Virus record (IMG/VR): IMGVR_UViG_3300037258_000282
Coordinates: 64,001-128,000 of that record
DNA length: 64,000 nucleotides
Origin: a virus
Strand: one strand, 5' to 3'
Below the pieces are notes generated by a model. That model did no database searches and was not told the origin of the DNA. It worked only from the letters and a program-made list of their open reading frames with translations. Numbering within the stretch: position 1 is the first letter of the stretch; every line of letters begins with the position of its first letter. The translations under genes and the position numbers were made by a program. Positions 1 through 26,138 of this stretch are shown here, piece by piece.

Positions 1-1377
1 ACTAAACTGCTTAAAGCCTACGGCCGGAACCTGACCATTTGATATTAAGCTCTCCCATTTAGCGGTCACTAAGCCACCGGCCGTCTGACCATAAACGTGG
101 TCTAGAAAGTCCCTGACGCCATTAAACTTACCTGGGTCCTTACCGATCCTGACGATATCATCGAGCATCGTCGGAAGATTGATGTTGGAGTTGAACTCAC
201 TCTTTATGAATGCTAATCCCGACTCCCTATATTTATCCTGCTCTGATGTATTATCGGCGATATCTACCAACTTTTCTGCAGTAGCGCGAAGATCACTCTT
301 ATCAGACCAAATAGCAAGGTGGTCTATAGAGTCGTATGTCACTCCAGAAGATGACATATTATGCGCTCCATAGTGGGAGTCAAATACTGGAATCGACCCA
401 CACGCTATCATTTCAATTTGAGTATTCTCCATGCGATCACCATAGTTCTCTGGCTGCTTTGGAAGCCTAAAGAAAGACGCGCAAAATAGAGATTCCGCTA
501 TATATCTCATTCCATTGGAATGAGTATACGGGCCAAATACCGGAACTTTGGGTGGATTAAAGTCGTAGTCTCCATCAAACTTTAAGGAATAGACCGTATT
601 ATGGTGTCCCCAGTCTTCTGGAGGAGGGCCGCCTTTATAGGACGCTATGGGGCCGCCGACGATGTCAGCCTTGGCTCCAATAGACTTCTCTATGCCATGA
701 ATCAAGCACTGGAACTTAGGGTCTATCTCGAATAAGTGATCTGCTAGGTCTAGCACTCTTCTAGGATCTTTCATCGTCGACCATCGCCCGACGTACGTCA
801 GCCTCTTAGCCTTATCAGCGAGCTTAACTGAGTCAAAATACTTTTCCTTGAGACCATCTACGTCGGTCCATATCTTAAACCTGCGGACGCGATCTCCCAC
901 TACCTTTGACGGAAGTATCTTTGTGATATTTTGAGCGAACCAGACTTTCTCAGAGAAGACATATATCAAGTCTGACTCATTGAGGATGGGAAGCCACAGT
1001 GGAAAACAGTCGATGTTTGGCTGAATTATCTCGTTCATCACCGAGACGACTATAGCTTGGGACGCCGATAGTGATCGAACAAGATCGTAGTAGAACGAGA
1101 TTGAGGTAGACGCAAGATGCTTAAATGATGGTATCGACTGTAGGATGACGACATCATACTCTGTCAGTCTCTTCGCTACGGTCTTCATTTCTGATGGCTT
1201 GAATCTCACTACCGTACCGGAAAATGGATGTCCTGATGCCCTGGCGAACGAGCGCTCGACCAATTCAAACACGTCGAACTGCATTCCGACTCTGATAGCC
1301 CAATTTTGAAACTCAACGCCGGACCGCTGAACTCCACATCCATCAAACCCCTTTCCAAATACCATAGCAATCTTCAT
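1..1377 (-). CDS. agt: DNA alpha-glucosyltransferase-like (T4 Agt family, GT-B); 3' end runs off window
   Basis: Absent from ORF track (no stop in window). Manual translation from ATG 1377: MKIAMVFGKGFDGCGVQR (T4 Agt MRICIFMARGLEGCGV), YVGRWSTMKDP (WIGRTTTWKG), HGIEKS (EGLERS), RMENTQIEMIACGSIPVF (LEYTHLELGACGTIPVF). At least 459 codons. Confidence 0.85.
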   Translation of the reverse strand, partial: MKIAMVFGKGFDGCGVQRSGVEFQNWAIRVGMQFDVFELVERSFARASGHPFSGTVVRFKPSEMKTVAKRLTEYDVVILQSIPSFKHLASTSISFYYDLVRSLSASQAIVVSVMNEIIQPNIDCFPLWLPILNESDLIYVFSEKVWFAQNITKILPSKVVGDRVRRFKIWTDVDGLKEKYFDSVKLADKAKRLTYVGRWSTMKDPRRVLDLADHLFEIDPKFQCLIHGIEKSIGAKADIVGGPIASYKGGPPPEDWGHHNTVYSLKFDGDYDFNPPKVPVFGPYTHSNGMRYIAESLFCASFFRLPKQPENYGDRMENTQIEMIACGSIPVFDSHYGAHNMSSSGVTYDSIDHLAIWSDKSDLRATAEKLVDIADNTSEQDKYRESGLAFIKSEFNSNINLPTMLDDIVRIGKDPGKFNGVRDFLDHVYGQTAGGLVTAKWESLISNGQVPAVGFKQFS

Positions 1378-1446
1378 CGCTCGCTCTCCATCCATTCCTG
1401 ATAAAGTTCACACGTCATATGAAGCGAAGTCATCATCTATATAACA

Positions 1447-1902
1447 TTAGTCGATGTTATCCTTCGCTCGACACACTCGATCTCTCAACTCCGACGATGA
1501 AAATGGATGCTTTCTCGAGTTAAACTCAATCGGACATAGATCGGCGCCTGTCGTCACGGACCCGAGATACTCCTCTCCAACGATCCTAACGTCCGGCTGT
1601 ATCATGAGTATCATATTCTCGAGATCTCTCTCATCACTGAAAGGAATGATCTCATCTACGTACTTACACCCGGCTACCTGAACGTACCTCTCCATCATAG
1701 ATTGAACCGGCGCATTCTTGGTCTCCGGCCTATCTATGGTCGGATCTACCAAGAGCCCTACTACAAGATAATCGCACTTCTCCTTGGCCTGCTGAAGCAT
1801 CATGACGTGCCCGGCGTGAAACAGATCGAATATCGACGACGTCAGACCTACGATAGGCTTTCTACCAAGAGCGGCCTCAAGTTTTTTCTTATCAAGAAAT
1901 AT
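1447..1902 (-). CDS. Glycerol-3-phosphate cytidylyltransferase-like (TagD/HIGH) nucleotidyltransferase; probable ATA start
   Basis: Track ORF (1803) omits the FDLFHAGH motif; frame stays open to ATA 1902 with AGGAG 6 nt upstream and an in-frame TAG immediately before. Also CDYLVVGL, KYVDEI, RKHPFSSSELR. Confidence 0.85.
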   Translation of the reverse strand: MFLDKKKLEAALGRKPIVGLTSSIFDLFHAGHVMMLQQAKEKCDYLVVGLLVDPTIDRPETKNAPVQSMMERYVQVAGCKYVDEIIPFSDERDLENMILMIQPDVRIVGEEYLGSVTTGADLCPIEFNSRKHPFSSSELRDRVCRAKDNID

Positions 1903-3097
1903 CTAACTCTCCTGTGAGTGAGAATTTATTCGTACATATCTTATGCGCGTAGACCAACCGGCGAATGGCGCAATATACTAGAGTAAGCTCCTCGACATTC
2001 TGACTGGAAGCATCAGAAGCGATAGCTCTCAACTTATACTTTATCATCCTGACTAGGTGTAGTACGGTAAGCATAACCAATAGTGGTGACGTTAAGCCAT
2101 CATTAGCCAATATATTCAGGCAGATATACTTATTATGGACAGGCCTGTAGTCGCTTCCAAGTCTCCACTCCTCATATCCTATGCATGACTGCAGTATCTT
2201 ACTAAAGTCAAGTAGATAAGAAGAGTATAGTCCGGGAGGAGAATTAGGATCTATATAGCACAACTCATCACTTTGTGTGACTATAACATTTCCAAACGTA
2301 AGGTCTCCGTGACACATCGACCTATTATCGTTCATCACTTCATGAGTTTTGAGATCATTGATCCAGTCCCAGATGTATTCCCTCTCTGGAACATCACTGA
2401 ACGCGAAGTGATCGCCGATCCTGGAGACCATCGTTTCCCAGAGAGGAATATCGCTCAAGTAGTTCGATGAGCAGTTCCTAACCGAAGAGATAAGCTCCAA
2501 CATGAGTCTCTCTATCCTAGAGTGATACTCAGTTGTTACGATCTCCTCGTTGAGAGACCTTCCCTCGACGTACTCCATATCTAAGGTATCGCCAAAGAAA
2601 GCATTTACTCTCGGCGACTTATAGAAGAAATTATTTTCTTTACGAAGCCTCGCGGCGGTCTTATACCAATCATACTGATGCCTAAGGTCTGGTCCAAACT
2701 TCAGGACTCTGTCACCAAACCTAGTTATCTTTGCGCCGGAACCACCTGAGAAATTTTCAGTCTTCATAGACACTAATTCGTCGGGTCGAATAGCCTTATC
2801 ATCAACGTAGTAGACTGCCAGTGGCTTTCCAAACTTAAGAGTGGTGTACTTAACGTCGTGTACTGACAACCACGCCTCAAGTATCGGCCTATTGTACTTC
2901 TCGATAGCCTGAATGTCCCCGTCGAACGTATACATGCCCCTAGCCGTATATAGGACTATATTTACTCCGGCGTCGTATAATTCGTTTATCCTCTGAATGA
3001 CGTCAGTCTTGGGTATCGCGTTAGCGTAGTCGCGGTGGTCTACAGTCGTCGATATAGTGTCATCGACATCGACTACTACAGTTACTGGAGCCATCAT
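1892..3097 (-). CDS. HAD phosphatase (capsule-biosynthesis phosphatase-like) fused to APH/choline kinase-like domain
   Basis: N-term VVDVDDT, YTARG, GKP..YYVDDKA (HAD); C-term GGSGA, CHGDLTFGNV, YIDPN (kinase fold). Confidence 0.8.
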   Translation of the reverse strand: MMAPVTVVVDVDDTISTTVDHRDYANAIPKTDVIQRINELYDAGVNIVLYTARGMYTFDGDIQAIEKYNRPILEAWLSVHDVKYTTLKFGKPLAVYYVDDKAIRPDELVSMKTENFSGGSGAKITRFGDRVLKFGPDLRHQYDWYKTAARLRKENNFFYKSPRVNAFFGDTLDMEYVEGRSLNEEIVTTEYHSRIERLMLELISSVRNCSSNYLSDIPLWETMVSRIGDHFAFSDVPEREYIWDWINDLKTHEVMNDNRSMCHGDLTFGNVIVTQSDELCYIDPNSPPGLYSSYLLDFSKILQSCIGYEEWRLGSDYRPVHNKYICLNILANDGLTSPLLVMLTVLHLVRMIKYKLRAIASDASSQNVEELTLVYCAIRRLVYAHKICTNKFSLTGELDIS

Positions 3098-3449
3098 CTA
3101 AAAATTCCCTGCACTTAGACAGTTGGTTTGCTATATACTTTTCATCGTTTATCTGTCTATTGAGACCAGATGGATGTGGAAGCTTGAAGTGTGATATATT
3201 TATGCGGGATAGACAATCGGATGCTAGATTTCCTAAGCATATTATATGACTGTGGCGCGCGACAAGCGAGAGAAGTCTCGTGAAGTCGACGTCGGACAAG
3301 CGAAACTTTCCAGAAACCAGCGAGCAGTTGGTAAAATTAAACTGCTCTACGCCGATAGACGCCATCCAGGCGTGCAGTCTGTATATAGTAGAGTTAACAG
3401 ACCTCGGATTACTTGTTCCTGGATTCTGCCCCACCACTAGTATAGTCAT
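3060..3449 (-). CDS. Small uracil-DNA glycosylase superfamily protein
   Basis: ILVVGQNPG, IICLGNLA and KLPHPSGLNR motifs; likely start ATG 3449. Confidence 0.7.
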   Translation of the reverse strand: MTILVVGQNPGTSNPRSVNSTIYRLHAWMASIGVEQFNFTNCSLVSGKFRLSDVDFTRLLSLVARHSHIICLGNLASDCLSRINISHFKLPHPSGLNRQINDEKYIANQLSKCREFLDDGSSNCSSRCR

Positions 3450-3909
3450 CGATGTGAAACACCATGCAAGATACACCGGACTCACTCAACATCTCGATGG
3501 CAAGCTCTGATGAATCTCTCCACTTGTCTGATATACTGCCTTGATAATTCATAACTACGCGCTTAATACCCACCTGTATGACCGCCTTAGCGCACTCGTG
3601 ACACACCGGAAGCCCATGGACGTAGAGATCGGCTCCGTCGAGAGACTGTCCCGTGAAACACGCGTTGTAGATGCAGTTCTGCTCGGCGTGTATGATATAT
3701 TGGTACTTAACCGCGCGATCATTAAGCCTCTGCTCAGTGTCCTTGAGACCTCTAGGAATACCATTATATCCAGACGATAGAAACTGCTTTCGATCTGGCC
3801 TGACTGCGACGCACCCTACCTTGGTCGACGGGTCCTTGGACATCTTAGACCAATTCTTGGCCTCTGAGAGAAAGTGATTATCCCACCTATTGATTATCAC
3901 TTGACCCAC
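3409..3909 (-). CDS. cd: dCMP deaminase
   Basis: SKDPSTKVGC, GYNGIPRG, HAEQN, PVCHECAK zinc motifs. Confidence 0.93.
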   Translation of the reverse strand: MGQVIINRWDNHFLSEAKNWSKMSKDPSTKVGCVAVRPDRKQFLSSGYNGIPRGLKDTEQRLNDRAVKYQYIIHAEQNCIYNACFTGQSLDGADLYVHGLPVCHECAKAVIQVGIKRVVMNYQGSISDKWRDSSELAIEMLSESGVSCMVFHIDDYTSGGAESRNK

Positions 3910-4643
3910 TCCGACGTAGGATACGCGATCCTATAATCGGTCTTAGGTATAGTGTAATATCCAGTCATATCGTAGTGATGCAGTAGGTAGAAGTCTCTCT
4001 CATAGACGTGAAGTGATCCTACCTGCCAGATCAAGTCACCAAGCGAGTAGTTATTTGACTTAAAATTATAATTTAGATCGGCCAGGAGCTTTCTCCGGAC
4101 GTGGTCCTGCCAGGCTCTGTCGTTTCTATACCCGAACGTGACGTCGTTAGACCTCATATTGACGATGGTGTGAAGCATATTTTCTCTGATGAGATACTGT
4201 ACAGTATTCGTGCAGATAAAGTCTGACATACCGTCCCAGTTGTAGTCCTCCCATATCTCAGGACGAGTATATATGGCGATGGCTCTTCTAGAATCTGGAC
4301 TGTTGATAAGCTCAGTCAGTACGTTGTCATACTGACAAAAATTTTCTCTAGAATAGAGAAGATACCCATAGTTCGAGTTGATCTTTCCATCGGAGCTCGC
4401 GACCTTCTTCCATATCTCAGGTACCTTACCAGGGATATCTGCGACGAATAGAGACTGATTCTCGTACCACTCGATCTCCCTCTCGATATACTCAGCATTT
4501 GGAGCGCCGAAGATCGTGATGTCGGAGGCCGAGAAGGAGTAGCCGATCAACTCAACTACTCTGCCGCCGGACTTATCGACTACGAACTTTTCGTCAACTA
4601 ACTTACGAGAGAGATCTTGACGAACGTTCCATATATTATTCAT
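3897..4643 (-). CDS. 42: dCMP hydroxymethylase (T4 gp42)
   Basis: Closely tracks T4 gp42: FVVDKSG, INSNYG, PDSRRA, DGMSDFICTNTVQYLIR (catalytic Cys), MRSNDVTFGYRND (Asp = cytosine specificity), GSLHVY. Confidence 0.93.
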   Translation of the reverse strand: MNNIWNVRQDLSRKLVDEKFVVDKSGGRVVELIGYSFSASDITIFGAPNAEYIEREIEWYENQSLFVADIPGKVPEIWKKVASSDGKINSNYGYLLYSRENFCQYDNVLTELINSPDSRRAIAIYTRPEIWEDYNWDGMSDFICTNTVQYLIRENMLHTIVNMRSNDVTFGYRNDRAWQDHVRRKLLADLNYNFKSNNYSLGDLIWQVGSLHVYERDFYLLHHYDMTGYYTIPKTDYRIAYPTSEWVK

Positions 4644-5410
4644 ACTGACTCCATCTCTAATATCATCAGCCTACCATTAGAGTCTTCTACAACTGACGTT
4701 AGAGACTCAACCCAATCTCCAGTATTGATATACTCAACTCCATCTATACATTTTATAATAGCATGGTGGATGTGTCCACATATTACACCATCTACGCACA
4801 TCTGTCTAGCGTAGTCAGTAACTAATTTTTCAAACTTTGATATGAAGTTAATAACCGACTTCACTGAGTCCTTACCATATTGAGCTAATGACCAGTATGG
4901 CATTCCGAACAGCCATCTGACGTCATTCATGTACTTATTCAGGACGAATAGAGCCTCATAGAGGAAGTCGCCGAGATGCATCATCCATTTAGCTCTAGTC
5001 ATAAAGACGTCGAACTTATCTCCGTGAAGTATGAGATATCTCTTTCCAAAAGAAGTCTCAAATAACACTTCGTCAACTACAGAGATCGAGCCTAATCCTA
5101 TGTTGAACTCAGTTCTAGAAAACTTACGTAAAAACTCATCGTGATTTCCCGCGACCACATACACCTTAGTACCGAGTGAGGCCTTCTCAAGTATAAGTTG
5201 AACTATTTTAGTCTCGTACTTACTCCACCTCCACTTGGACTTCAGTGCCCACCCATCTATCACGTCGCCGACTAAGAATAGAAAGTCCGACTTCGTCGAC
5301 TTTAAGAAACTCAGCAGAGCCTTACTGTTGGCGTACTTCATCCCCAGATGCGCGTCTGAGATGAATATAGACCTATAGTATGATGGTTTAGTCAGGTCTA
5401 AAATCCTCAT
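4640..5410 (-). CDS. Calcineurin-like metallophosphoesterase, UDP-2,3-diacylglucosamine hydrolase (LpxH)-like
   Basis: FISDAHLG, LVGDVIDGW, GNHDE, HGDKFD, CGHIHH, NTGDWVES. Confidence 0.85.
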   Translation of the reverse strand: MRILDLTKPSYYRSIFISDAHLGMKYANSKALLSFLKSTKSDFLFLVGDVIDGWALKSKWRWSKYETKIVQLILEKASLGTKVYVVAGNHDEFLRKFSRTEFNIGLGSISVVDEVLFETSFGKRYLILHGDKFDVFMTRAKWMMHLGDFLYEALFVLNKYMNDVRWLFGMPYWSLAQYGKDSVKSVINFISKFEKLVTDYARQMCVDGVICGHIHHAIIKCIDGVEYINTGDWVESLTSVVEDSNGRLMILEMESV

Positions 5411-6158
5411 ACTCGCGAGTCACTTCCCTACCACCCGTAACAGCCAGGTAGTTCTTGACGTACGCTAGGGTGGTGTTAAATATACCCTGCTCGCGAAGTC
5501 TACGAGACGATGAGTATATCCACATCGCCGGAATAAGTCTAACACTACCGAAATTAGACAACCTTCTAGCGAGGTCCGTGTCCTCACCGTAGAATGGAAT
5601 GTTAGTAGAATGACCACCGGCCGCCGTCAGATATTTGCGCTTGAGGATGAAGTTGCCACCCTGAAGCGTCGGACCTATAATCATATTGGCAACTATATTC
5701 ATAATGTAGAACCCGGCGGCGCCGGCCTTGACCGGAAGGCTCATATCACTAAAATACAGCGGACCAGACACGACCGCGATATTTGGGTTCTCCACGAGTT
5801 GTACGATATTGTCAAGCCAGTTAGGTGGAACTATATTATCAGCGTCGATATAGGCGTGATACTGATACCTAGCAAAATCAGCTCCACGCTGACGGGCTCT
5901 AGTGACTCCCTTTTGAGACTCGAAAACTACACTTATCGGACACATCGACCTACTATCTTCAGTCGCCACCAGAGCGGCCTCGACATACGTCCGATCTGTA
6001 GAATTATTATCTACGACGATGATCTCAAAGTCACTTATAAGCCCGTCGAGCATCTCGTCCCTTGAGAATCTCTCGCACTCATCGAGAATCGACCTGACAC
6101 ACTTAGCTATACTCTTCTCCTCGTTATACGCGGGAATTATAAAGCTGATGCCACCCAA
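5388..6158 (-). CDS. Family 2 glycosyltransferase
   Basis: IIPAYNEE, VVDNNSTD, IDAD (DxD), GEDTDL, SSRR; TTG start with AGGAG RBS. Confidence 0.9.
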   Translation of the reverse strand: MGGISFIIPAYNEEKSIAKCVRSILDECERFSRDEMLDGLISDFEIIVVDNNSTDRTYVEAALVATEDSRSMCPISVVFESQKGVTRARQRGADFARYQYHAYIDADNIVPPNWLDNIVQLVENPNIAVVSGPLYFSDMSLPVKAGAAGFYIMNIVANMIIGPTLQGGNFILKRKYLTAAGGHSTNIPFYGEDTDLARRLSNFGSVRLIPAMWIYSSSRRLREQGIFNTTLAYVKNYLAVTGGREVTREYEDFRPD

Positions 6159-6188
6159 GTTTAAACTCCTAATGTTTCAATAATAAAC

Positions 6189-6860
6189 CTAGTGCCATTC
6201 CAGGTTGAGATCGTCTAAGAATTCACTCTCGACGCTCAAGTCTATGGACTCGGGCGCGGGATGCGCGGGTTTGAGCGTCGAAGTAGTCGTCGAAGTATGC
6301 GGCTTGGTGAGGAGGTCATTAAATATGTCCCTAGACTCATCTTGCCCATCCATCTTCCCCCTAAGCCATGACACAGCAAATGAGGCATAGTTTATCAAGT
6401 CTTTGTATGTGTCCTCAAGTGACTCATTATTGGGTGTATTTCCAGACTCGATCAGCGACTGAGCCCTGAACATCTTTCCCATCATGATATCATGGATGGT
6501 GTCGATTCCACGGCGGTAGTGATCCGCCTGTCTCACTCGCGAGTTAGGGTTCTGATAGTCATGAGACTTTTTTCTCATGATGTCAATGCACTCATGAAGC
6601 ACGTTCATCGCTTCTGTGTTTGAAGCGTCAGATTTCTCGATCTGTGTGATGATCTCACAGTCCCTACATATGTTTTCTTCATACTGACCTTGAAGATAGA
6701 TCGCCTGATAAATCTCCACGTCAGTCTTACCACCGAGCCATTTCTTTACTTCGGGCTCGATCCAGTCAGCGATCTGACTGGCAGACATATGGAGCATAGA
6801 GTCTAAGTTATAAAAACTGACAGCATGTTGAATAGCCTCATTCAAAGTAGTACTCATCAT
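6189..6860 (-). CDS. Nucleotide-modification-associated domain 1 (DUF1599-like) protein with N-terminal extension
   Basis: RKKSHDYQ...K..RA...NESLEDTYKDLINYASF pattern; cluster context. Confidence 0.65.
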   Translation of the reverse strand: MMSTTLNEAIQHAVSFYNLDSMLHMSASQIADWIEPEVKKWLGGKTDVEIYQAIYLQGQYEENICRDCEIITQIEKSDASNTEAMNVLHECIDIMRKKSHDYQNPNSRVRQADHYRRGIDTIHDIMMGKMFRAQSLIESGNTPNNESLEDTYKDLINYASFAVSWLRGKMDGQDESRDIFNDLLTKPHTSTTTSTLKPAHPAPESIDLSVESEFLDDLNLEWH

Positions 6861-6881
6861 ATCTCTCCAACTCGTATATAC

Positions 6882-7313
6882 TTACGAAAATATGCCCTCG
6901 AGCATTCCATGATTGGACATGTGACTCGGGCCGCACCATCCAAATGGCTTGATGAGATCTGGCAGATTGAGGGGATTTGGTCGAGAGGGCTTTACCCCTG
7001 GAGCCTTTCTCATGTTCGCGTTGTGAACGGCGATCCAGGCCTTCGCGGTATCGACTCCAAACGTATCGAGCGTTCCAAGAGCGACTACGATAATATCTAC
7101 AAGCGCGTCGACAACGTCCTCTGCTGTCGTCGAGGAGTCCAGTTCGGCCATCTCCTCACGAAGGAAGTTCTTTCTGAACTCGAGAAGTTTCTTAAGCTGA
7201 TCTTTATCAAACTCAGCTACTCTCTTGGTGAACTCATAGAAGTCGTGCATCCCACGTATATCACCGATCATGTCGGGGTGAGAGTACGCCATATTATTCC
7301 TATGCAATTCCAT
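6882..7313 (-). CDS. MazG-like NTP pyrophosphohydrolase (candidate dCTPase)
   Basis: FLREEMAEL, VVDALVDIIVVALGT, VHNANMRK, DLIKP.GW; all-alpha NTP-PPase pattern. Confidence 0.8.
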   Translation of the reverse strand: MELHRNNMAYSHPDMIGDIRGMHDFYEFTKRVAEFDKDQLKKLLEFRKNFLREEMAELDSSTTAEDVVDALVDIIVVALGTLDTFGVDTAKAWIAVHNANMRKAPGVKPSRPNPLNLPDLIKPFGWCGPSHMSNHGMLEGIFS

Positions 7314-7989
7314 CTAAACTCGCTCCATTTTCTGAATTCCAATCATCTATCATAGCTTCAATATCTATCCACTTCACCAGCGTGCTATCACTCGAAGTCA
7401 TATTCTTATCCCAAATATACCAGCAGTACTCGAGCATTCCACCAGTGTGATCCCGCGCGTTCGAAGAGGCGGCCATCTCCAGCGAGCAATTTATTCTTTT
7501 GGGAAACACTAGTACAGCAGTCGGAGGATTTACACTGAAGATCGACTTATATCTGCTTTGACTATTCATGAACTGCATTCTACAGAACATCGCGACGAAC
7601 GGAACTTTACTCCTCAACGCTCTCACTAAGAACCGCTCGGCCATCCTATTCTTATAGGGTGGATTGGTGATTATGGCACTTGACCAGTTTGAAAAACTAG
7701 TAAATCTAGTATCTGAAGAGTCGAGAAAGTCTACGCCATCAAGAACTTCTACCAGAGAATTCTCATACTTAAACTTATCAGTAGATAACACGTCGTGACC
7801 TAAGCGCTTAAGCTCAGCGGAGATATGTCCCATTCCCGCGGCGGGTTCCCATATGAATTCTGGAATATAATCCCAGTTCTTAACTAGGGAGTACGTCGCG
7901 AGGGGAGGCGTGGGATAGAAATCATTATCCTGCCTCTCTACTCCCCTCTTGTTTCCAAATCCGACTGTTGTAGCGAAATATGAAGTCAA
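7300..7989 (-). CDS. DNA amino-methyltransferase (probably N6-adenine)
   Basis: DNDFYPTP, WEPAAGMG (SAM binding), ITNPPY (catalytic), YCWYIW. Confidence 0.8.
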   Translation of the reverse strand: MTSYFATTVGFGNKRGVERQDNDFYPTPPLATYSLVKNWDYIPEFIWEPAAGMGHISAELKRLGHDVLSTDKFKYENSLVEVLDGVDFLDSSDTRFTSFSNWSSAIITNPPYKNRMAERFLVRALRSKVPFVAMFCRMQFMNSQSRYKSIFSVNPPTAVLVFPKRINCSLEMAASSNARDHTGGMLEYCWYIWDKNMTSSDSTLVKWIDIEAMIDDWNSENGASLDGIA

Positions 7990-8492
7990 TTTTGAATTAT
8001 CCAGTCTGGAACTTCTCTGTTCTTATATTTCAATAGATGTCTCTTATGGGTGTTATAGTACTTTCTATAAGACCCTACTACGTCTTCGTCGATGACGCAG
8101 TCGTCAGCGACGCATGGCACTATCACCGAGAAGTCGACTTCTCCGACGAATTTTTTAACGTTCAGCGGAGGTGACTGCAATTGATAGAGCATAGACGAGC
8201 ACTTGTGCTCTCTCCCATATCTGAACTTATACTCCACGAGAAGCCCATGAAAATGATCCGCTAGCCACCAGTAGTTATCGACTGACTCTCGACACCACTT
8301 AGCGCACGGATGATTGACGTGCGTCTTCTTATAGAAGACCAACTCGCGTTCGTCGGGCAGAGGATCGCCGTCTGCTACTCTATGCGCCGTGGAGAGAAGC
8401 TGAGCCGTTTCTAGAACCATCTTAACGACGTGCTTATCACACATCATCCTGGCTGCCTCCCAGGGCTCCTCGTGAAGAAAAAATATGTTCAT
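7986..8492 (-). CDS. Pyrimidine-dimer DNA glycosylase-like (DenV family) protein
   Basis: MNIFFL, CDKHVVKMVLETAQLLSTAH, THVNHPCAKW, RYGREH, YRKYY. Confidence 0.75.
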   Translation of the reverse strand: MNIFFLHEEPWEAARMMCDKHVVKMVLETAQLLSTAHRVADGDPLPDERELVFYKKTHVNHPCAKWCRESVDNYWWLADHFHGLLVEYKFRYGREHKCSSMLYQLQSPPLNVKKFVGEVDFSVIVPCVADDCVIDEDVVGSYRKYYNTHKRHLLKYKNREVPDWIIQN

Positions 8493-8527: not shown

Positions 8528-9049
8528 TCACTTTCTTATGTACTTCATCAGGCCGATGCCAGAATAATCAACTTCGTGAGCGTTCTTTATCGCCCTATCC
8601 AGAGTTATCCTATTAACTAGACCCTCGAAGAACACCTTTCCATCGAGGTGCATCAGCTCGTGCTGTATGACTCTAGCCGTAATACCGGTATACTGGGCCG
8701 TGTCGACATGCGAGTTTGGTAAGGCAAACCTGAGTCTAATGTGAAGAGGTCGGCGGATTGGAACTACTAAGTGTGGATAGGTCACACACGCTTCGTTAAA
8801 CTTAAGATCTTCTGCTGAGAAAGTAAGCAGTCGCGGATTGAAGAACACGAAGTTCTCAGGAGAGCCCCTCATGGCGAATATTCTATAGGGTACGCCGACC
8901 TGATTCGACGCGAGGCCGACCGCTCCCGTTTCATACATAAAATGCACGAGCTCAGACGCGAACTCAATGGGATCGAACGGTGGGTTCGCGAAGTCAAACT
9001 CTTTAGTTGGAGTTGACAGTACTGGATCATCGTACCTCACTAGTTCCAT
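8528..9049 (-). CDS. def: Peptide deformylase
   Basis: VGLASNQVG, FFNP, EACVTYP (EGCLS variant), QHELMHLDG. Confidence 0.88.
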   Translation of the reverse strand: MELVRYDDPVLSTPTKEFDFANPPFDPIEFASELVHFMYETGAVGLASNQVGVPYRIFAMRGSPENFVFFNPRLLTFSAEDLKFNEACVTYPHLVVPIRRPLHIRLRFALPNSHVDTAQYTGITARVIQHELMHLDGKVFFEGLVNRITLDRAIKNAHEVDYSGIGLMKYIRK

Positions 9050-15502: not shown

Positions 15503-16897
15503 TTATACGTATACGTACTTTGCGCTCCCGCAGTCCCATATCCTGTCGTAGCCCTCATCCAACATGATCTGCCACTCAGTTAGATCCTCAGAGTAGCTTG
15601 GAAATGCCTTCAGCTTGTGCTTCTGAAACCTAACTCTGGATGACAGGCCGGATGGATACCTCCTGTCAAAATACCAGTAGTTCGGCGGCGTGTCGGCCAC
15701 TCTCGAGAAGCCACATCTCTCATACACTCTCCCAGATCCAAAGCGCAGGTCCGCGTAGGTCATTATTCCGGTTGGTTCGTACTCTTCTATGAACCAACCG
15801 AAGAGTCTCGACGCGCCACCGGCGACCTGAGTGTTGGCGACCGTGGTCATGCGGATGCACTCCCAGTCTATAGTCTTATCAAAGCGAGACTTTCCCATGG
15901 TTAGCGTCTGAAGTAGCTCTCCGTCGCGCTCAAGCCCGAGGTGGACACTTCCCGGACGATGACCATGAGAGTGGTTCTTAGACGCGAACTCTGCGGCTAT
16001 TTTAGAATCTAAATGCAGAACCGCGCACTCTCTGGCGCCGACTCTCCTGGAGCACATACCGAGCTTGACGCGAATCAGTGACTTTGTCAGATCGAGGTCG
16101 TCGGTCTCGAATACGGTAATCAGGTCGTATCCAGCCGCCGCGCATAGATCTCTCTTCGTCTTATGGTAGCTCTTGGCCCTCTCTCCGGTAAACTCAGAGT
16201 GCCAGTATAGGCCGCAGTACTCTATGGCTAACTTCCTGGAGTGGCACACTACGTCGAGCTCATACGGTGGGATCACGGTTCTATCAGAGGACTCCCAGAT
16301 GAGTTCCGGAGACAGAGACTGGCAAAAGTTGAACAAGGCGATCTCCGCGACAGATCGAGATGGATTGATTGTAGTTATGTCATACTCCTTGACTAGTCTC
16401 TTTATAGATGTACCTGAGAGGTCGAAGTGTCTGCCTAGTTGCGTTAGATTCTTATACTCATCATAGGCGGTGATAAACTCCTCTTTGGTGGGGATCATCC
16501 TCTGCCACGCTTTGACCTTTGCAATCTTTATTGACTCTGATAGAGTGTTTCTCGTTATATTATATCCATCGAGCCAATTGTAGATAGTATCTTGGCCTAC
16601 ATGAAACATTTTAGTAAGAGCGTGAATAGAGTTATTTTTACAGAGAGATTCAAGCTCTTCTCTAGATGGAGGATCATTTTCTACCAGATGTCTCTGGGAT
16701 GCTTCAGTCGAAGCCTGCTTGTGGTCTTTTACGGGTATGCCATATGACTGAAGCCAATGTCTTATAGTTACGTGCGTGGTATCATATATCTTCGCCATCG
16801 ATGATAGGGTAGAGCCAAACCTGAAGTACTTATCTATGAGCTCTTCTCTTGATGGTTTAGTGAATCGCTTTCCGACGCCAGTTCCTGTAGAAGTCAT
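15503..16897 (-). CDS. Hef-like free-standing homing endonuclease (HTH repeats + Vsr/PD-(D/E)xK + GNAT-like domain)
   Basis: Three HTH-like repeats, ELDV...KLAIEYCGLYWHSE...K...C...GYDLITVFE, then GGASRLF, TYADLRF, PNYWY, RIWDCG. Confidence 0.75.
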   Translation of the reverse strand: MTSTGTGVGKRFTKPSREELIDKYFRFGSTLSSMAKIYDTTHVTIRHWLQSYGIPVKDHKQASTEASQRHLVENDPPSREELESLCKNNSIHALTKMFHVGQDTIYNWLDGYNITRNTLSESIKIAKVKAWQRMIPTKEEFITAYDEYKNLTQLGRHFDLSGTSIKRLVKEYDITTINPSRSVAEIALFNFCQSLSPELIWESSDRTVIPPYELDVVCHSRKLAIEYCGLYWHSEFTGERAKSYHKTKRDLCAAAGYDLITVFETDDLDLTKSLIRVKLGMCSRRVGARECAVLHLDSKIAAEFASKNHSHGHRPGSVHLGLERDGELLQTLTMGKSRFDKTIDWECIRMTTVANTQVAGGASRLFGWFIEEYEPTGIMTYADLRFGSGRVYERCGFSRVADTPPNYWYFDRRYPSGLSSRVRFQKHKLKAFPSYSEDLTEWQIMLDEGYDRIWDCGSAKYVYV

Positions 16898-23078: not shown

Positions 23079-26000
23079 TTACTGTCCCTTGATATCTTGC
23101 CCAGCGGTACCTTTCGTCGCGCCGATAGACTTGGCTATCTCTGGATTCTTAGCTAGAATTTGCACCGCCGCCTTATACTTAGACTGATCCTGCATCGAGC
23201 GATTTTCCTTAGATTTCTTCTTCATCATCTCTATCGTCTGCTTGGCCTTTCTAACCTCTTCATACTTCTTGGCCTTATCGTCATCCACCATAGCATCGGA
23301 ATCTGAACCAACGTCCTGGGGCACATCATCTGGATTCTCATCTGGATTCTCATCTGGGTTCATCATATCTTGTGGCTGCCACCTCGGATCACCGGAGTCG
23401 AGCTCGGCCTGTATCTCGGCGTCCATCTTTTCGATGTCCTCATCTGACTGCTGGAGGACGTTCTTACGAACCCACTCATTAGAATAGTACTTACCTACCA
23501 TGTCCTGAAGATTTCTAGCGAGCTCAACTCTAGAAGTCAGTACCTCACCATCTTTTAGTTCAGTGAAGTAGTTATCCTTTGAGTAGTTATACTTTACTCT
23601 CTGCTCTATATCCTGCCAGTCCTCAAGAGACATAACCCCCTTGAGGACTAACTGCTTCTCGAGAAGCTTATTGAATATGATCGAGAAGCGTGAGCGAAGT
23701 CTTATGATGAACCGAGCAAACTTTACCTCGTCGCGCGTTACTTCGGTCGCCCTTCCCACGGAGAAAAGTGCGTCCGAGTTCAGTCGGGAGACAGGTACGT
23801 TGAGAGTCTGTAGAAACTTCTTCTGAAAGTATAAGACGTCGTCCATCTGCCCGAGGTTTTGACCTCCCGGCAGGGTAGTAACCTCAGTTCCACGCCCGCC
23901 CTCTCTTCTCGGAAGCCAGTAATCTTCAAGAGTTGTATTCTTTGAATAAATCCCACAGTCAAGCTGAAAGGTATGATGGCTATCATATGCCTCTTTTTCA
24001 AAGTCAATAGTCAGGCACCCGACGTCCATCTTCTCGTTGAGGAATTCTACAGATACGACCCTGTGGTTGTGCAGTTGCTCGGCGTGATACCCTCTAGAGC
24101 CAAAGTCTCCCTTGATGTTATTTCTATCTAATCCACTGGCGCGGCAGAAAGCGCTGAGATTCTCAATTATCTCAATCTGTCCGTCAGGAGCAGTGATCTT
24201 CCATGACTTACACGCAACAGAAGTTCTATTTTTAGCCGCTACAGATAGTGACTCTCTCCACTGTGTATTATTTGACATATCAACGTATCGCTTTAGCGTA
24301 CTGCGTTGCTTTTTATTATGTACTATTTTCGAAGCAAACTGAGCTGAGTAGCTCTTCCAGTTCTTATGTCCGAGGCGCCCGCACACTTTAAGCAGGTCGC
24401 GATACAGGAACTTCCAGGGCACGATAGCCCTCTTGGGCATGATGGTGTCGGCATTAGCGCTCATCCACGCCGCATGATCGATCTTCTCATTGATTAGTTT
24501 TAGAGCTTCCGCTCCTCTCATCTGGTCTCTGGCGCACTTCTCTACTACACCGTATATCTCGTCGGTGTATAATAGAGTTCGAGCCTCGGCATTCTTTATC
24601 TTCAACTCATCGCTGTTACAGAACACCGAGTGGTACTTCCAGTGATCCCTGTTGTTCATCATGACAAGGTTCTCTGGATTATTGTTGTATCTATTTAAGT
24701 CGAAGTGGTGAACTGTCCTCTTGTTTAGGTGGTTCAAGTCAGCATCATAAGAGAATTCCTCGCGAAGCCCGTTCTCGTCTTTCCACTTAGATACCGCGCG
24801 ATGAGTAAATACCCACTTCTTACTGTCATTTTGATATATCTGCTCGTACTCTCTTCCACCATCTTCTATGGGAGACATCCTCCTATAGCCTGGAATGATC
24901 GACTCACCAATCGCGAGGTGCTGAGCCTCGACGAACCCCTTGTTCCAAACTGGAAACTTGTGATCTGGTGTGCAGACAACGCTCTTGCCATTGTCAAGAG
25001 TGACGCGAACTACGTCGGAGTCTCTCTTAGTGATGCCAGCCCACTCTACTGGTCCTGGCGCGAATTTACCAGTCATGGGATCGCATGAGTATACCCAGTT
25101 CTTCTTACCAGCCTCGTACTCGGCGATTATCTCTTCTAGCGGAAGAGTGCGACCATCCAGCAGTGGTATTCTCGTATCTAACGCGAGACACATGAACTTG
25201 CGATCGTCACGAACCTCACCAGACGCGGCGTCATATATGAGACGATTCTTGTGCTTCACCATGATCTCGCGGACGTACTGCTCCGCCTTGATCTTTGGAA
25301 GATTACCGACGTCGATGTACCATATTCTTCTCTCGGGGGCTCTCGCGATCCTGTATATGACCATGGAGTCTTCGAGCGTCCTAAGCTGGTTCAGAGACTT
25401 AATGCCCTTATGCAGATAGGACAGGACCATGGTCCCACCGTTATCTGTCAGCCCGGATACTACGTGAAGTATGGAATCTACCGCGATCTTTAGGCCGTTA
25501 GTCGCAGGGCCAGATGGCTTATTTCCGTAGTTGAACCCCTTATCGTTGAACACGAAGTACTCGTTAGCAACGCGAGTGATCGTGGCGTCACCGCCTCCGA
25601 TACCTCCAGATGAGCCTCCCTGAACTCGCTTTCGAGCGACCTCGCGAATCTTACGGATCTTTCTCGGATCTATGTATCGAAGTTCCTTGATGCCACCAGA
25701 CGTATCGTTCTCATCTATGATGACGTGATAGTATAGGCGCCCATCGATATACCAGCGCCTGAGAATGTCGTACGCGTATTTGTTAAAATCGAGAAGGTCT
25801 AGGCAGTTGTGAAACTCCTCGATTATGACCTTCTTAATATTATCAGAGATATTGACTTTATCTAGATTTATATCTACGATGGTCTCTTCGTCGATAGACA
25901 TAGCTTCATTGACTATCTCATCGATAGCCGAATCGCACTCCGGCTGGAGCGACATCTCTCGATATTTAGTGACGAGTTCGGCCTCAGTTCGAACAGTTCC

Positions 26001-26138
26001 ATCTAGATCGATGTACGTTCCGAACGAGCCACCGGCCGCGACGATAACAGCTCCGTCCTCATTATCCCTCGGGGCGAATGAGACTAGCTGCTTGTCTAGC
26101 GGTACTTTTCTCTTAAACTCAAATCCGAATAGCATCAT
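23079..26138 (-). CDS. 20: Portal vertex protein gp20 with intein
   Basis: LFGF, RRWYIDGR, YRIARAPERRIWYIDVGNLPK, LEDYWLPRREGGRGTEVTTLPGGQNLG. Confidence 0.96.
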   Translation of the reverse strand: MMLFGFEFKRKVPLDKQLVSFAPRDNEDGAVIVAAGGSFGTYIDLDGTVRTEAELVTKYREMSLQPECDSAIDEIVNEAMSIDEETIVDINLDKVNISDNIKKVIIEEFHNCLDLLDFNKYAYDILRRWYIDGRLYYHVIIDENDTSGGIKELRYIDPRKIRKIREVARKRVQGGSSGGIGGGDATITRVANEYFVFNDKGFNYGNKPSGPATNGLKIAVDSILHVVSGLTDNGGTMVLSYLHKGIKSLNQLRTLEDSMVIYRIARAPERRIWYIDVGNLPKIKAEQYVREIMVKHKNRLIYDAASGEVRDDRKFMCLALDTRIPLLDGRTLPLEEIIAEYEAGKKNWVYSCDPMTGKFAPGPVEWAGITKRDSDVVRVTLDNGKSVVCTPDHKFPVWNKGFVEAQHLAIGESIIPGYRRMSPIEDGGREYEQIYQNDSKKWVFTHRAVSKWKDENGLREEFSYDADLNHLNKRTVHHFDLNRYNNNPENLVMMNNRDHWKYHSVFCNSDELKIKNAEARTLLYTDEIYGVVEKCARDQMRGAEALKLINEKIDHAAWMSANADTIMPKRAIVPWKFLYRDLLKVCGRLGHKNWKSYSAQFASKIVHNKKQRSTLKRYVDMSNNTQWRESLSVAAKNRTSVACKSWKITAPDGQIEIIENLSAFCRASGLDRNNIKGDFGSRGYHAEQLHNHRVVSVEFLNEKMDVGCLTIDFEKEAYDSHHTFQLDCGIYSKNTTLEDYWLPRREGGRGTEVTTLPGGQNLGQMDDVLYFQKKFLQTLNVPVSRLNSDALFSVGRATEVTRDEVKFARFIIRLRSRFSIIFNKLLEKQLVLKGVMSLEDWQDIEQRVKYNYSKDNYFTELKDGEVLTSRVELARNLQDMVGKYYSNEWVRKNVLQQSDEDIEKMDAEIQAELDSGDPRWQPQDMMNPDENPDENPDDVPQDVGSDSDAMVDDDKAKKYEEVRKAKQTIEMMKKKSKENRSMQDQSKYKAAVQILAKNPEIAKSIGATKGTAGQDIKGQ
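23937..25190 (-). mobile_element. Intein (418 aa) with HNH endonuclease in the portal
   Basis: Interrupts DDRKFM|TTLEDYW; begins CLALDT, block B VCTPDHKF, HNH TVHHFDLNRYNNNPENL, ends GIYSKN with +1 Thr. Confidence 0.93.

Follow-up and report, generated by a model that had tools for sequence, protein, structure and literature searches.

A virus record of 152,589 bp from IMG/VR (IMGVR_UViG_3300037258_000282, estimated to be 91% complete) carries, at the start of the 64,000-nucleotide stretch formed by its bases 64001-128000 (the window), a cluster of genes that we interpret as a DNA-hypermodification island. Its product would be DNA in which 5-hydroxymethylcytosine (5hmC), made by the deoxycytidine monophosphate (dCMP) hydroxymethylase gp42, bears a sugar, probably a heptose, that was activated by the phage itself. 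It is highly probable that hmC, a phage-made nucleoside diphosphate (NDP)-sugar and DNA glycosylation come together in this phage, and we favor the complete reading with moderate confidence.

In the scheme that we propose, a MazG-like pyrophosphatase, a candidate dCTPase, would act with dCMP deaminase to reshape the deoxycytidine pool before replication, and gp42 would convert dCMP to 5-hydroxymethyl-dCMP, by which the DNA would come to carry 5hmC. The APH-fold kinase domain of a fusion protein would phosphorylate the anomeric carbon of a sugar phosphate, and the fused HAD domain would take off the distal phosphate. A HIGH-type nucleotidyltransferase, CTase1, is predicted from its sequence to turn the sugar-1-phosphate into an NDP-sugar, most probably an NDP-heptose fed by a host or phage GmhA. 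After replication, an AGT-like GT-B glycosyltransferase would attach the sugar to the 5hmC hydroxyl in DNA, the glycan may then be lengthened by at least one GT-A enzyme, and the glycosylated DNA would be shielded from restriction and CRISPR nucleases. We infer the order of the substrates, the identities of the sugar and the nucleotide, and the roles of the MazG-like, Nmad1, GT2, phosphoesterase and C5-methyltransferase-like proteins.

Core genes of the modification cluster

The cluster lies in the replication-gene region, between gp45 and gp46/47. All of its genes are on the minus strand, and neighbors either overlap by 4-77 nt or sit 21-51 nt apart. A preliminary description of this DNA had reported a tightly packed same-strand cluster, and all eight genes that it named were found on the minus strand at roughly the places it gave. 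Its gene list lacked two further members of the cluster, an LpxH-like metallophosphoesterase (4640-5410) and a small open reading frame (ORF) related to the uracil-DNA glycosylase (UDG) superfamily (3060-3485).

The product of gp42 (3897-4643), a 5-hydroxymethyl-dCMP synthase, matches T4 dCMP hydroxymethylase (PDB 1b49) with an E value of 1e-86 and about 57% identity. Its catalytic cysteine is kept (DFICTNT), as are the cytosine-selecting aspartate in RND, equivalent to E. coli N177, and the aspartate in MRSND, equivalent to E. coli D169. The latter position separates two kinds of hypermodified base. The "arabosyl-hmC" of RB69-type phages is in truth arabinosyl-5-hydroxycytosine, and 5-hydroxycytosine (5hoC) synthases have an asparagine at D169 (2026 paper, PMC13326640). 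We considered an RB69-type 5-hydroxycytosine reading of the present cluster and rejected it, given the absence of D169N in gp42 and the identity to T4 gp42. Because the D169N signature is absent, 5hmC is the expected gp42 product. Additionally, gp42 is the sole ThyA-family gene in the genome, with a weak ThyX-like match elsewhere.

Other T4 functions that act on the dC pool were not recovered. In the ~91% complete genome we found no homologue of T4 gp56 (tblastn, best E 1.1), no homologue of the deoxynucleoside monophosphate kinase gp1 (best E 2.3) and zero matches to the thymidylate kinase family. Exclusion of dCTP would thus rest on the MazG-like enzyme, and phosphorylation of hm-dCMP on other or host kinases. 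Judged by its sequence, the MazG-like NTP pyrophosphohydrolase (6882-7313; PF01503, 2.3e-7; phrog_671, 1.5e-16) is a candidate dCTPase that would stand in for gp56. Its homologues occur in Rhizobium and Agrobacterium phages and also beside the thymidylate synthase (TS) gene of Pelagibacter phage Kolga. The dCMP deaminase (3409-3909) matches PF00383 (1.8e-19) and phrog_174 (2e-39).

Donor synthesis is assigned to two genes. The first encodes a fusion protein of 401 residues (1892-3097; TIGR01689, 8e-24; APH PF01636) with an N-terminal HAD phosphatase of the AfhF/1xpj subfamily and a C-terminal APH-fold kinase. In an alignment of 18 homologues, the HAD part has an invariant Asp pair (D10/D12) together with K91, D99 and D100, and in the kinase part G119-S120-G121, K133, H263-G264-D265, N270 and D283 are invariant and G118 nearly so. 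A Foldseek search with the AlphaFold model (pLDDT 81) matched the kinase part to APH(2''), ethanolamine kinase and maltokinase, and the HAD part foremost to the Vibrio cholerae protein 1xpj (37% identity). The same structure, 1xpj, is the published hit for RB69 gp51 and DLP3 gp81, which are arabinose-1,5-bisphosphate phosphatases of the AfhF type.

The second donor gene encodes CTase1, a HIGH-type nucleotidyltransferase of 151 residues (1447-1902) that matches PF01467 with its HxGH motif. Under ATG/GTG/TTG start rules the ORF covers only 1447-1803 and lacks this motif, which is encoded (as FHAGH) upstream of the first ATG. The gene appears to start at an ATA codon at 1902 (window 1900-1902), with an AGGAG Shine-Dalgarno sequence 6 nt before it, and this ATA aligns with Met1 (ATG) of orthologues. 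Either the phage uses a rare start codon here, or the codon was altered in sequencing or assembly. From this start, CTase1 keeps both HxGH and the C-terminal R-x-H-x-x-S motif. Its best NCBIfam model is rfaE_dom_II (1.7e-20), followed by TagD (1.5e-12), both below cut-off, and its PDB sequence matches begin with human ethanolamine-phosphate cytidylyltransferase (ECT, 1.5e-21), then TagD (1.2e-11) and CCT.

The AGT-like gene begins 51 nt after the CTase gene and crosses the window start, ending 101 nt beyond it (window 1-1395; full gene G000:C1:63899-65395). It encodes a GT-B protein of 498 residues that scores 40.4 bits against Pfam AGT (PF11440; cut-off 25) and 2.7e-76 against phrog_2888. Residues 6-407 align end to end with residues 3-394 of T4 alpha-GT (1y6f; E 7e-17), and both glutamates of the E-x-x-x-x-E stretch are kept. 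The protein is 37% identical to Bacillus phage G gp306 and 43-48% identical to the AGT genes of related cassettes.

Past the window start the cluster goes on with a C5-cytosine-methyltransferase-like (C5MT-like) gene, a DUF3310 gene and a GT-A-like glycosyltransferase gene. The C5MT-like gene (G000:C1:62707-63906; L004:12704-13906; minus strand) lies 95-1294 nt before the window start and overlaps the AGT stop. Motifs IV (PC), VI (ENxP), VIII (QxRxR), IX and X are kept, and motif I is unusual (IPLIGG). Its position after AGT is conserved in T4-like and DnaE-polymerase phages; homologues also occur in Pseudoalteromonas phage XG4, in Bacillus phage G and, near the TS gene but without sugar genes, in cyanophage S-TIM5. 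The GT-A-like protein, of 374 residues (G000:C1:61286-62407; L004:11283-12407; minus strand; phrog_1574, no Pfam hit), is the third glycosyltransferase of the cluster, and in relatives it is found downstream of the methyltransferase-like gene at 40-58% identity. It had been considered as a TET dioxygenase, a candidate that was dropped when the ESM Atlas grouped it with viral GT-A glycosyltransferases. A Tet_JBP search of the genome and five related records gave no match, and the positive control was equally silent, so that this search does not establish the absence of TET.

Recurrence of the cluster and likeness to known systems

A profile scan of IMG/VR returned 80 loci, 28 of them with a contiguous HAD-APH fusion. 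A nucleotidyltransferase lies 21-682 nt downstream of HAD-APH in every one of these 28, and in 7 of the 28 an AGT-like and then a C5MT-like gene follow. Most or all of the cluster order is kept in the three closest relatives (L030, L031 and L033), where it reads MazG, Nmad1, gp42, deaminase, UDG-like, HAD-APH, CTase, AGT, C5MT, DUF3310 and GT-A, with a phrog_799 methyltransferase-like gene at its head in L033 only. A contig from ENA extends this order into gp44, gp62 and regA. Large phages whose polymerase is of the DnaE type also have the block of HAD-APH, CTase, AGT and C5MT, with a TS homolog as its neighbor. L021 is the one such locus with DNA available, and its TS homolog has the cytosine-selecting aspartate; indeed, all four aligned TS homologs have an aspartate at this position. 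Relatives and unrelated phage lineages alike repeat this gene order, and the arrangement thus goes beyond chance.

The donor pair is not tied to one type of transferase. It is found beside a TET-associated glycosyltransferase (TAGT) in L024, beside weak GT47-like or GT10-like proteins in L022 and L023 and, in Agathobaculum phage AB434P2, beside an unnamed protein that neighbors a TS homolog. Since it is linked to AGT, to TAGT and to weak GT47/GT10-like proteins, we regard the donor pair as a mobile unit that serves different DNA glycosyltransferases. The preliminary description had made its proposal depend on whether the HAD-kinase and CTase genes accompany the Agt-like gene in relatives; they do, along with a cytosine-type TS homolog, and the proposal was not refuted on this point. 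Separately, L021 has consecutive genes for an epimerase, a second protein of the cytidylyltransferase fold and a PfkB kinase (L021:66-2156). This set is HldD/HldE-like and, as judged from sequence, appears to be another link of these phages to heptose metabolism.

The closest experimental precedent is contig 53, a metagenomic cluster of subclass III described by Pyle, Lund, O'Toole and Saleh, which encodes a HAD-like/APH-like bifunctional enzyme, a cytidylyltransferase and a GT-B DNA glycosyltransferase (bioRxiv 10.1101/2023.12.21.572611). All three proteins were required to form mono-heptosyl (449 atomic mass units, amu) and di-heptosyl (641 amu) 5hmC in E. coli supplied with 5hmC, and the accompanying metagenome survey found GT-B contigs associated with ThyS, dCMP deaminase, gp45 and APH (bioRxiv 10.1101/2023.12.21.572611). 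The present cluster likewise has a HAD-APH fusion, an adjoining cytidylyltransferase-fold enzyme and an adjacent GT-B DNA glycosyltransferase, and by analogy with this trio, for which the product was demonstrated elsewhere, heptosyl-5hmC would be formed here as well. The two clusters differ in how the base is made: in contig 53, 5hmC arises after replication through a methyltransferase and a TET-type dioxygenase, whereas here it would arise before replication through a gp42 orthologue. The present phage additionally has two GT-A enzymes, MazG, Nmad1, the phosphoesterase and a distant GmhA island.

These comparisons sort the earlier proposals. That the phage builds its own donor and adds a non-glucose sugar to hmC is supported by the intact kinase, phosphatase and nucleotidyltransferase motifs, by co-occurrence in relatives and by the contig 53 trio experiment. 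The pathway had also been called novel, and this cannot be maintained, as a donor module with a DNA GT-B has already been described (bioRxiv 10.1101/2023.12.21.572611). What is new relative to that known core is the gp42 route in place of methyltransferase and TET, the alpha-GT-type transferase and the accessory genes. The suggestion that a polyol-phosphate might be added instead finds no phospho-alcohol transferase to carry it out.

The likeness to T4 is also extensive and includes the gp42 orthologue, dCMP deaminase, an alpha-GT homologue and the position between gp45 and gp46/47. T4, however, uses host UDP-glucose and has no donor-synthesis genes, while this phage carries its own. Compared with the T4 set (gp42, gp56, gp1, cd, alpha-GT and beta-GT), the cluster has no detectable gp56 or gp1 and has extra GT-A enzymes and the C5MT-like gene.

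Identity of the sugar and competing readings

A second sugar-nucleotide island lies ~39 kb from the cassette on the minus strand (G000:C1:19793-25997; L009:5790-11997). It encodes CTase2, a GmhA-like isomerase, a transaldolase (2.8e-70), an SDR protein, a GFO/MocA oxidoreductase, a fusion of a TylF-like methyltransferase and GT1, and a GHMP kinase. CTase2 is a second rfaE_dom_II-like nucleotidyltransferase, 41% identical to CTase1; the two paralogues score 73 and 66 bits against this model, whose cut-off is 181.5 bits. The GmhA-like SIS_2 protein (G000:C1:24965-25546) matches PF13580 above cut-off, PDB phosphoheptose isomerases at 2e-8, and TIGR00441 at 1.6e-14, far under the equivalog cut-off. 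The island is syntenic with a simpler heptose module in the 171-kb uncultured phage LR796247.1 (L028) that has its own GmhB-like HAD and GT1.

Bacterial nucleotide-heptose pathways follow the same logic of isomerase (GmhA), anomeric kinase (HldE or HddA), phosphatase (GmhB) and nucleotidyltransferase (HldE domain II, HldC or HddC). The phage genes that resemble them are the GmhA-like isomerase, the GHMP (HddA-like) kinase and the two rfaE_dom_II-like nucleotidyltransferases. The cassette differs from these pathways in that its kinase is APH-fold and not PfkB or GHMP, its phosphatase is not of the GmhB subfamily, and all scores fall far under the curated equivalog cut-offs. The acceptor here would be DNA, in contrast to the lipopolysaccharide, capsule or S-layer of the bacterial pathways. 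We favor heptose because of the contig 53 experiment and the second, GmhA-bearing island, and put it at even chances; some other sugar is rather less likely, and a donor that is not a sugar at all is improbable.

Several points weigh against our interpretation. This analysis consists of gene identities, catalytic motifs and synteny, and the phage is known only from a metagenome. The link to the contig 53 trio is one of shared architecture and not of measured sequence identity, and the contig 53 glycosyltransferase resembles T4 beta-GT, whereas the one here is an alpha-GT homologue. The HAD domain belongs to the arabinose-1,5-bisphosphate phosphatase (AfhF) subfamily rather than GmhB, and CTase1, which falls below every curated cut-off, is as a single sequence nearer to ECT and TagD than to HldC. 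The GmhA island, with its own kinase, nucleotidyltransferase and GT1, may serve another target. With respect to the base, C may not be fully replaced, as gp1, gp56 and thymidylate kinase were not found, and a C5MT homologue that looks catalytically intact is hard to reconcile with fully hmC-substituted DNA.

The AfhF-type HAD domain leaves room for a pentose donor. An NDP-pentose, whether arabinose-like (HY126, RB69, DLP3) or xylose-like (Shewanella phage Thanatos), or another non-heptose sugar made by the same architecture is the alternative that survives best, though we think it unlikely. In the pentose version the kinase would phosphorylate a host sugar-5-phosphate at C1 and leave the 5-phosphate for the HAD domain to strip. 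The Afh system (HY126, RB69 and Acinetobacter phage DLP3; PMC13326640) does resemble the present cluster, in that a kinase, a HAD phosphatase and a nucleotidyltransferase make a phage NDP-sugar for cytosine glycosylation. Its kinases are APH-fold, and the HAD part of the fusion protein is 30-32% identical by tblastn to the HY126 AfhF gene and its counterpart in related T4-like phages of E. coli. Relatives that bear the module, one of them a phage with a Gram-positive host, have no GmhA in the sequence available, which would fit a pentose; these records are 5-42% complete, so that the lack of GmhA in them is uninformative. The enzymes are arranged differently, however: Afh joins its kinase to a MurU-like nucleotidyltransferase (AfhE) and keeps the HAD protein separate, whereas here kinase and HAD are fused and the separate nucleotidyltransferase is HIGH-type. 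A genome search for the KdsD-type SIS isomerase (PF01380), which would supply arabinose-5-phosphate, gave no match, with a control that was positive in 14 of 14 genomes, whereas a GmhA-like isomerase is present. The Afh base is 5hoC, made by a TS homolog with D169N, and gp42 keeps the aspartate at this position. Finally, the sole trio of this architecture to have been tested produced heptose, and did so in a host where arabinose-5-phosphate is likewise present.

A more elaborate version, in which the two sugar islands cooperate to build a hetero-oligosaccharide on 5hmC from more than one phage-made donor, strikes us as doubtful. Heptose would enter via HAD-APH and CTase1, and an oxidized or O-methylated heptose via GmhA, the GHMP kinase, CTase2, SDR, GFO and the methyltransferase-GT1 fusion. 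The GT-A enzymes would then lengthen the chain, and the C5MT-like protein would act on hmC-DNA other than by ordinary cytosine methylation.

We consider it very unlikely that the kinase and nucleotidyltransferase work as a pair of the Kennedy type and produce a cytidine diphosphate (CDP)-alcohol (CDP-ethanolamine, CDP-choline, CDP-glycerol or CDP-ribitol), from which a phospho-alcohol would be added to hmC or its sugar. The order of the CTase1 matches in the PDB, with human ECT ahead of TagD and CCT, and the presence of ethanolamine kinase among the top Foldseek matches of the kinase domain would suit such a pair. The cluster, however, lacks any CDP-alcohol phosphotransferase and any enzyme of the LicD or TagF type, the next gene is always one for a GT-B glycosyltransferase, the fused phosphatase would have no role in a Kennedy pathway, and the tested trio of the same architecture yielded a sugar.

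Least probable of all is that the sugar genes are auxiliary metabolic genes for non-DNA targets such as the host envelope or virion proteins and merely lie beside the hmC genes in the hyperplastic gp45-gp46 region. In favor of this reading, GT2 and the phosphoesterase are mobile as a pair of their own, which in L107 lies at a distance from hmC genes, the phosphoesterase comes closest to bacterial LpxH-annotated proteins, many of alphaproteobacterial origin, and the GmhA island is self-contained with its own GT1 in another phage. Against it, several unrelated lineages show HAD-APH and CTase tightly linked to AGT or TAGT and to TS homologs of the cytosine type, and the tested trio modified DNA.

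Accessory genes, phage relationships and significance

The GT2 glycosyltransferase (GT-A fold; 5388-6158; PF00535, 1.8e-26) and the LpxH-like phosphoesterase (PF00149, 3e-14; LpxH models 2e-12, below cut-off) were inserted as a two-gene unit, specific to this lineage (4640-6158), between Nmad1 and gp42. Neither has a homologue in any of the 80 related loci from the IMG/VR scan. Nmad1/DUF1599 (6189-6860; PF07659, 1.4e-7; phrog_1485) is 47-56% identical in L030, L031 and L033, where it lies directly upstream of gp42 with no GT2 or phosphoesterase in between. An unrelated phage-like scaffold, L107, has the same overlapping pair, GT2 and then phosphoesterase (1495-2980). Between the phosphoesterase and the LpxH-annotated proteins, many from Rhizobiales or other Alphaproteobacteria, identity is 47-52%, and by this likeness its gene would seem to have come from Alphaproteobacteria. 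A terminator-like hairpin and a promoter-like site, one of each, border the beginning of the insertion, which is no more than suggestive; the scan for promoters and terminators gave 23 sites against a shuffled expectation of 15.7 +/- 3.6, not clearly above it. The pair has at most a putative part in DNA modification, and GT2, which the preliminary description had counted among the core enzymes, is probably not one of them, being absent with its partner from the 80 loci and forming a separate pair in L107.

Two further genes accompany the cluster. At its upstream edge is a putative DNA methyltransferase of phrog_799 (7300-7989; 2e-45), which has zero Pfam or NCBIfam matches and homologues in L022 and L033 that are 35-46% identical. 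The small UDG-like ORF, of 129-141 residues, scores 8.4e-5 against the Pfam UDG model, below cut-off, and a PDB sequence search with it was empty. It is kept at the same position in L030, L031 and L033 with 42-43% identity, and because of this conservation we regard it as a real gene. Its GQNPG motif resembles those of MUG/SMUG. Judging from the sequence, the protein could handle deaminated 5hmC (5hmU).

The gene complement identifies the virus, on sequence grounds, as a T4-like myovirus. Homologues of gp46/47, gp55, UvsW, UvsY, gp19, gp23, gp22, gp20, gp18, gp17 and gp6 follow in T4 order on the minus strand, and gp45, gp44, gp62, RegA and a split DNA polymerase lie before the window start. 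In its major capsid protein the virus shares 68% identity with Stenotrophomonas phage DLP6 and 63% with Sinorhizobium phiM12-type phages. A megablast of the modification region against 50,697 phage records gave zero nucleotide matches, and thus no close cultured relative was found there. The genome also contains a permuted (two-piece) transfer-messenger RNA (tmRNA) gene with the tag ANDNFACEARLAA, confirmed by ARAGORN (G000:C1:135312-135627; L029:2312-2627; minus strand). We take the permuted tmRNA to point to an alphaproteobacterial host, as a lead and not a proof.

Other features of the genome, all on the minus strand, lie outside the modification genes. Genes for a DenV-like pyrimidine-dimer DNA glycosylase (window 7986-8492) and a peptide deformylase (window 8528-9049) separate the modification cluster from gp46. 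The gp20 homologue, a portal protein of 1019 residues (window 23079-26138), has two portal-matching stretches and an HNH endonuclease-like insert at about residues 428-535, probably an intein or else an inserted homing endonuclease. A pair of paralogous genes encodes homing endonucleases of the phrog_3339/HNH type on the same strand, one in the gap between the tail tube and major capsid genes (window 15503-16897) and the other between gp45 and the modification cluster (L004:10010-11293).

Sugar coats on phage DNA determine which restriction, CRISPR and glycosylase defenses work, and they also hinder sequencing and engineering. The present locus indicates that a heptose-type donor kit, earlier tested only with methyltransferase/TET clusters, also travels with the gp42 route in T4-like phages, and that this kit pairs interchangeably with at least three families of DNA glycosyltransferase. 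Together, gp42, HAD-APH, CTase and the AGT-like glycosyltransferase make up a compact enzyme set for reconstitution, and the locus flags a conserved C5-methyltransferase-like partner in phages with hmC-DNA.

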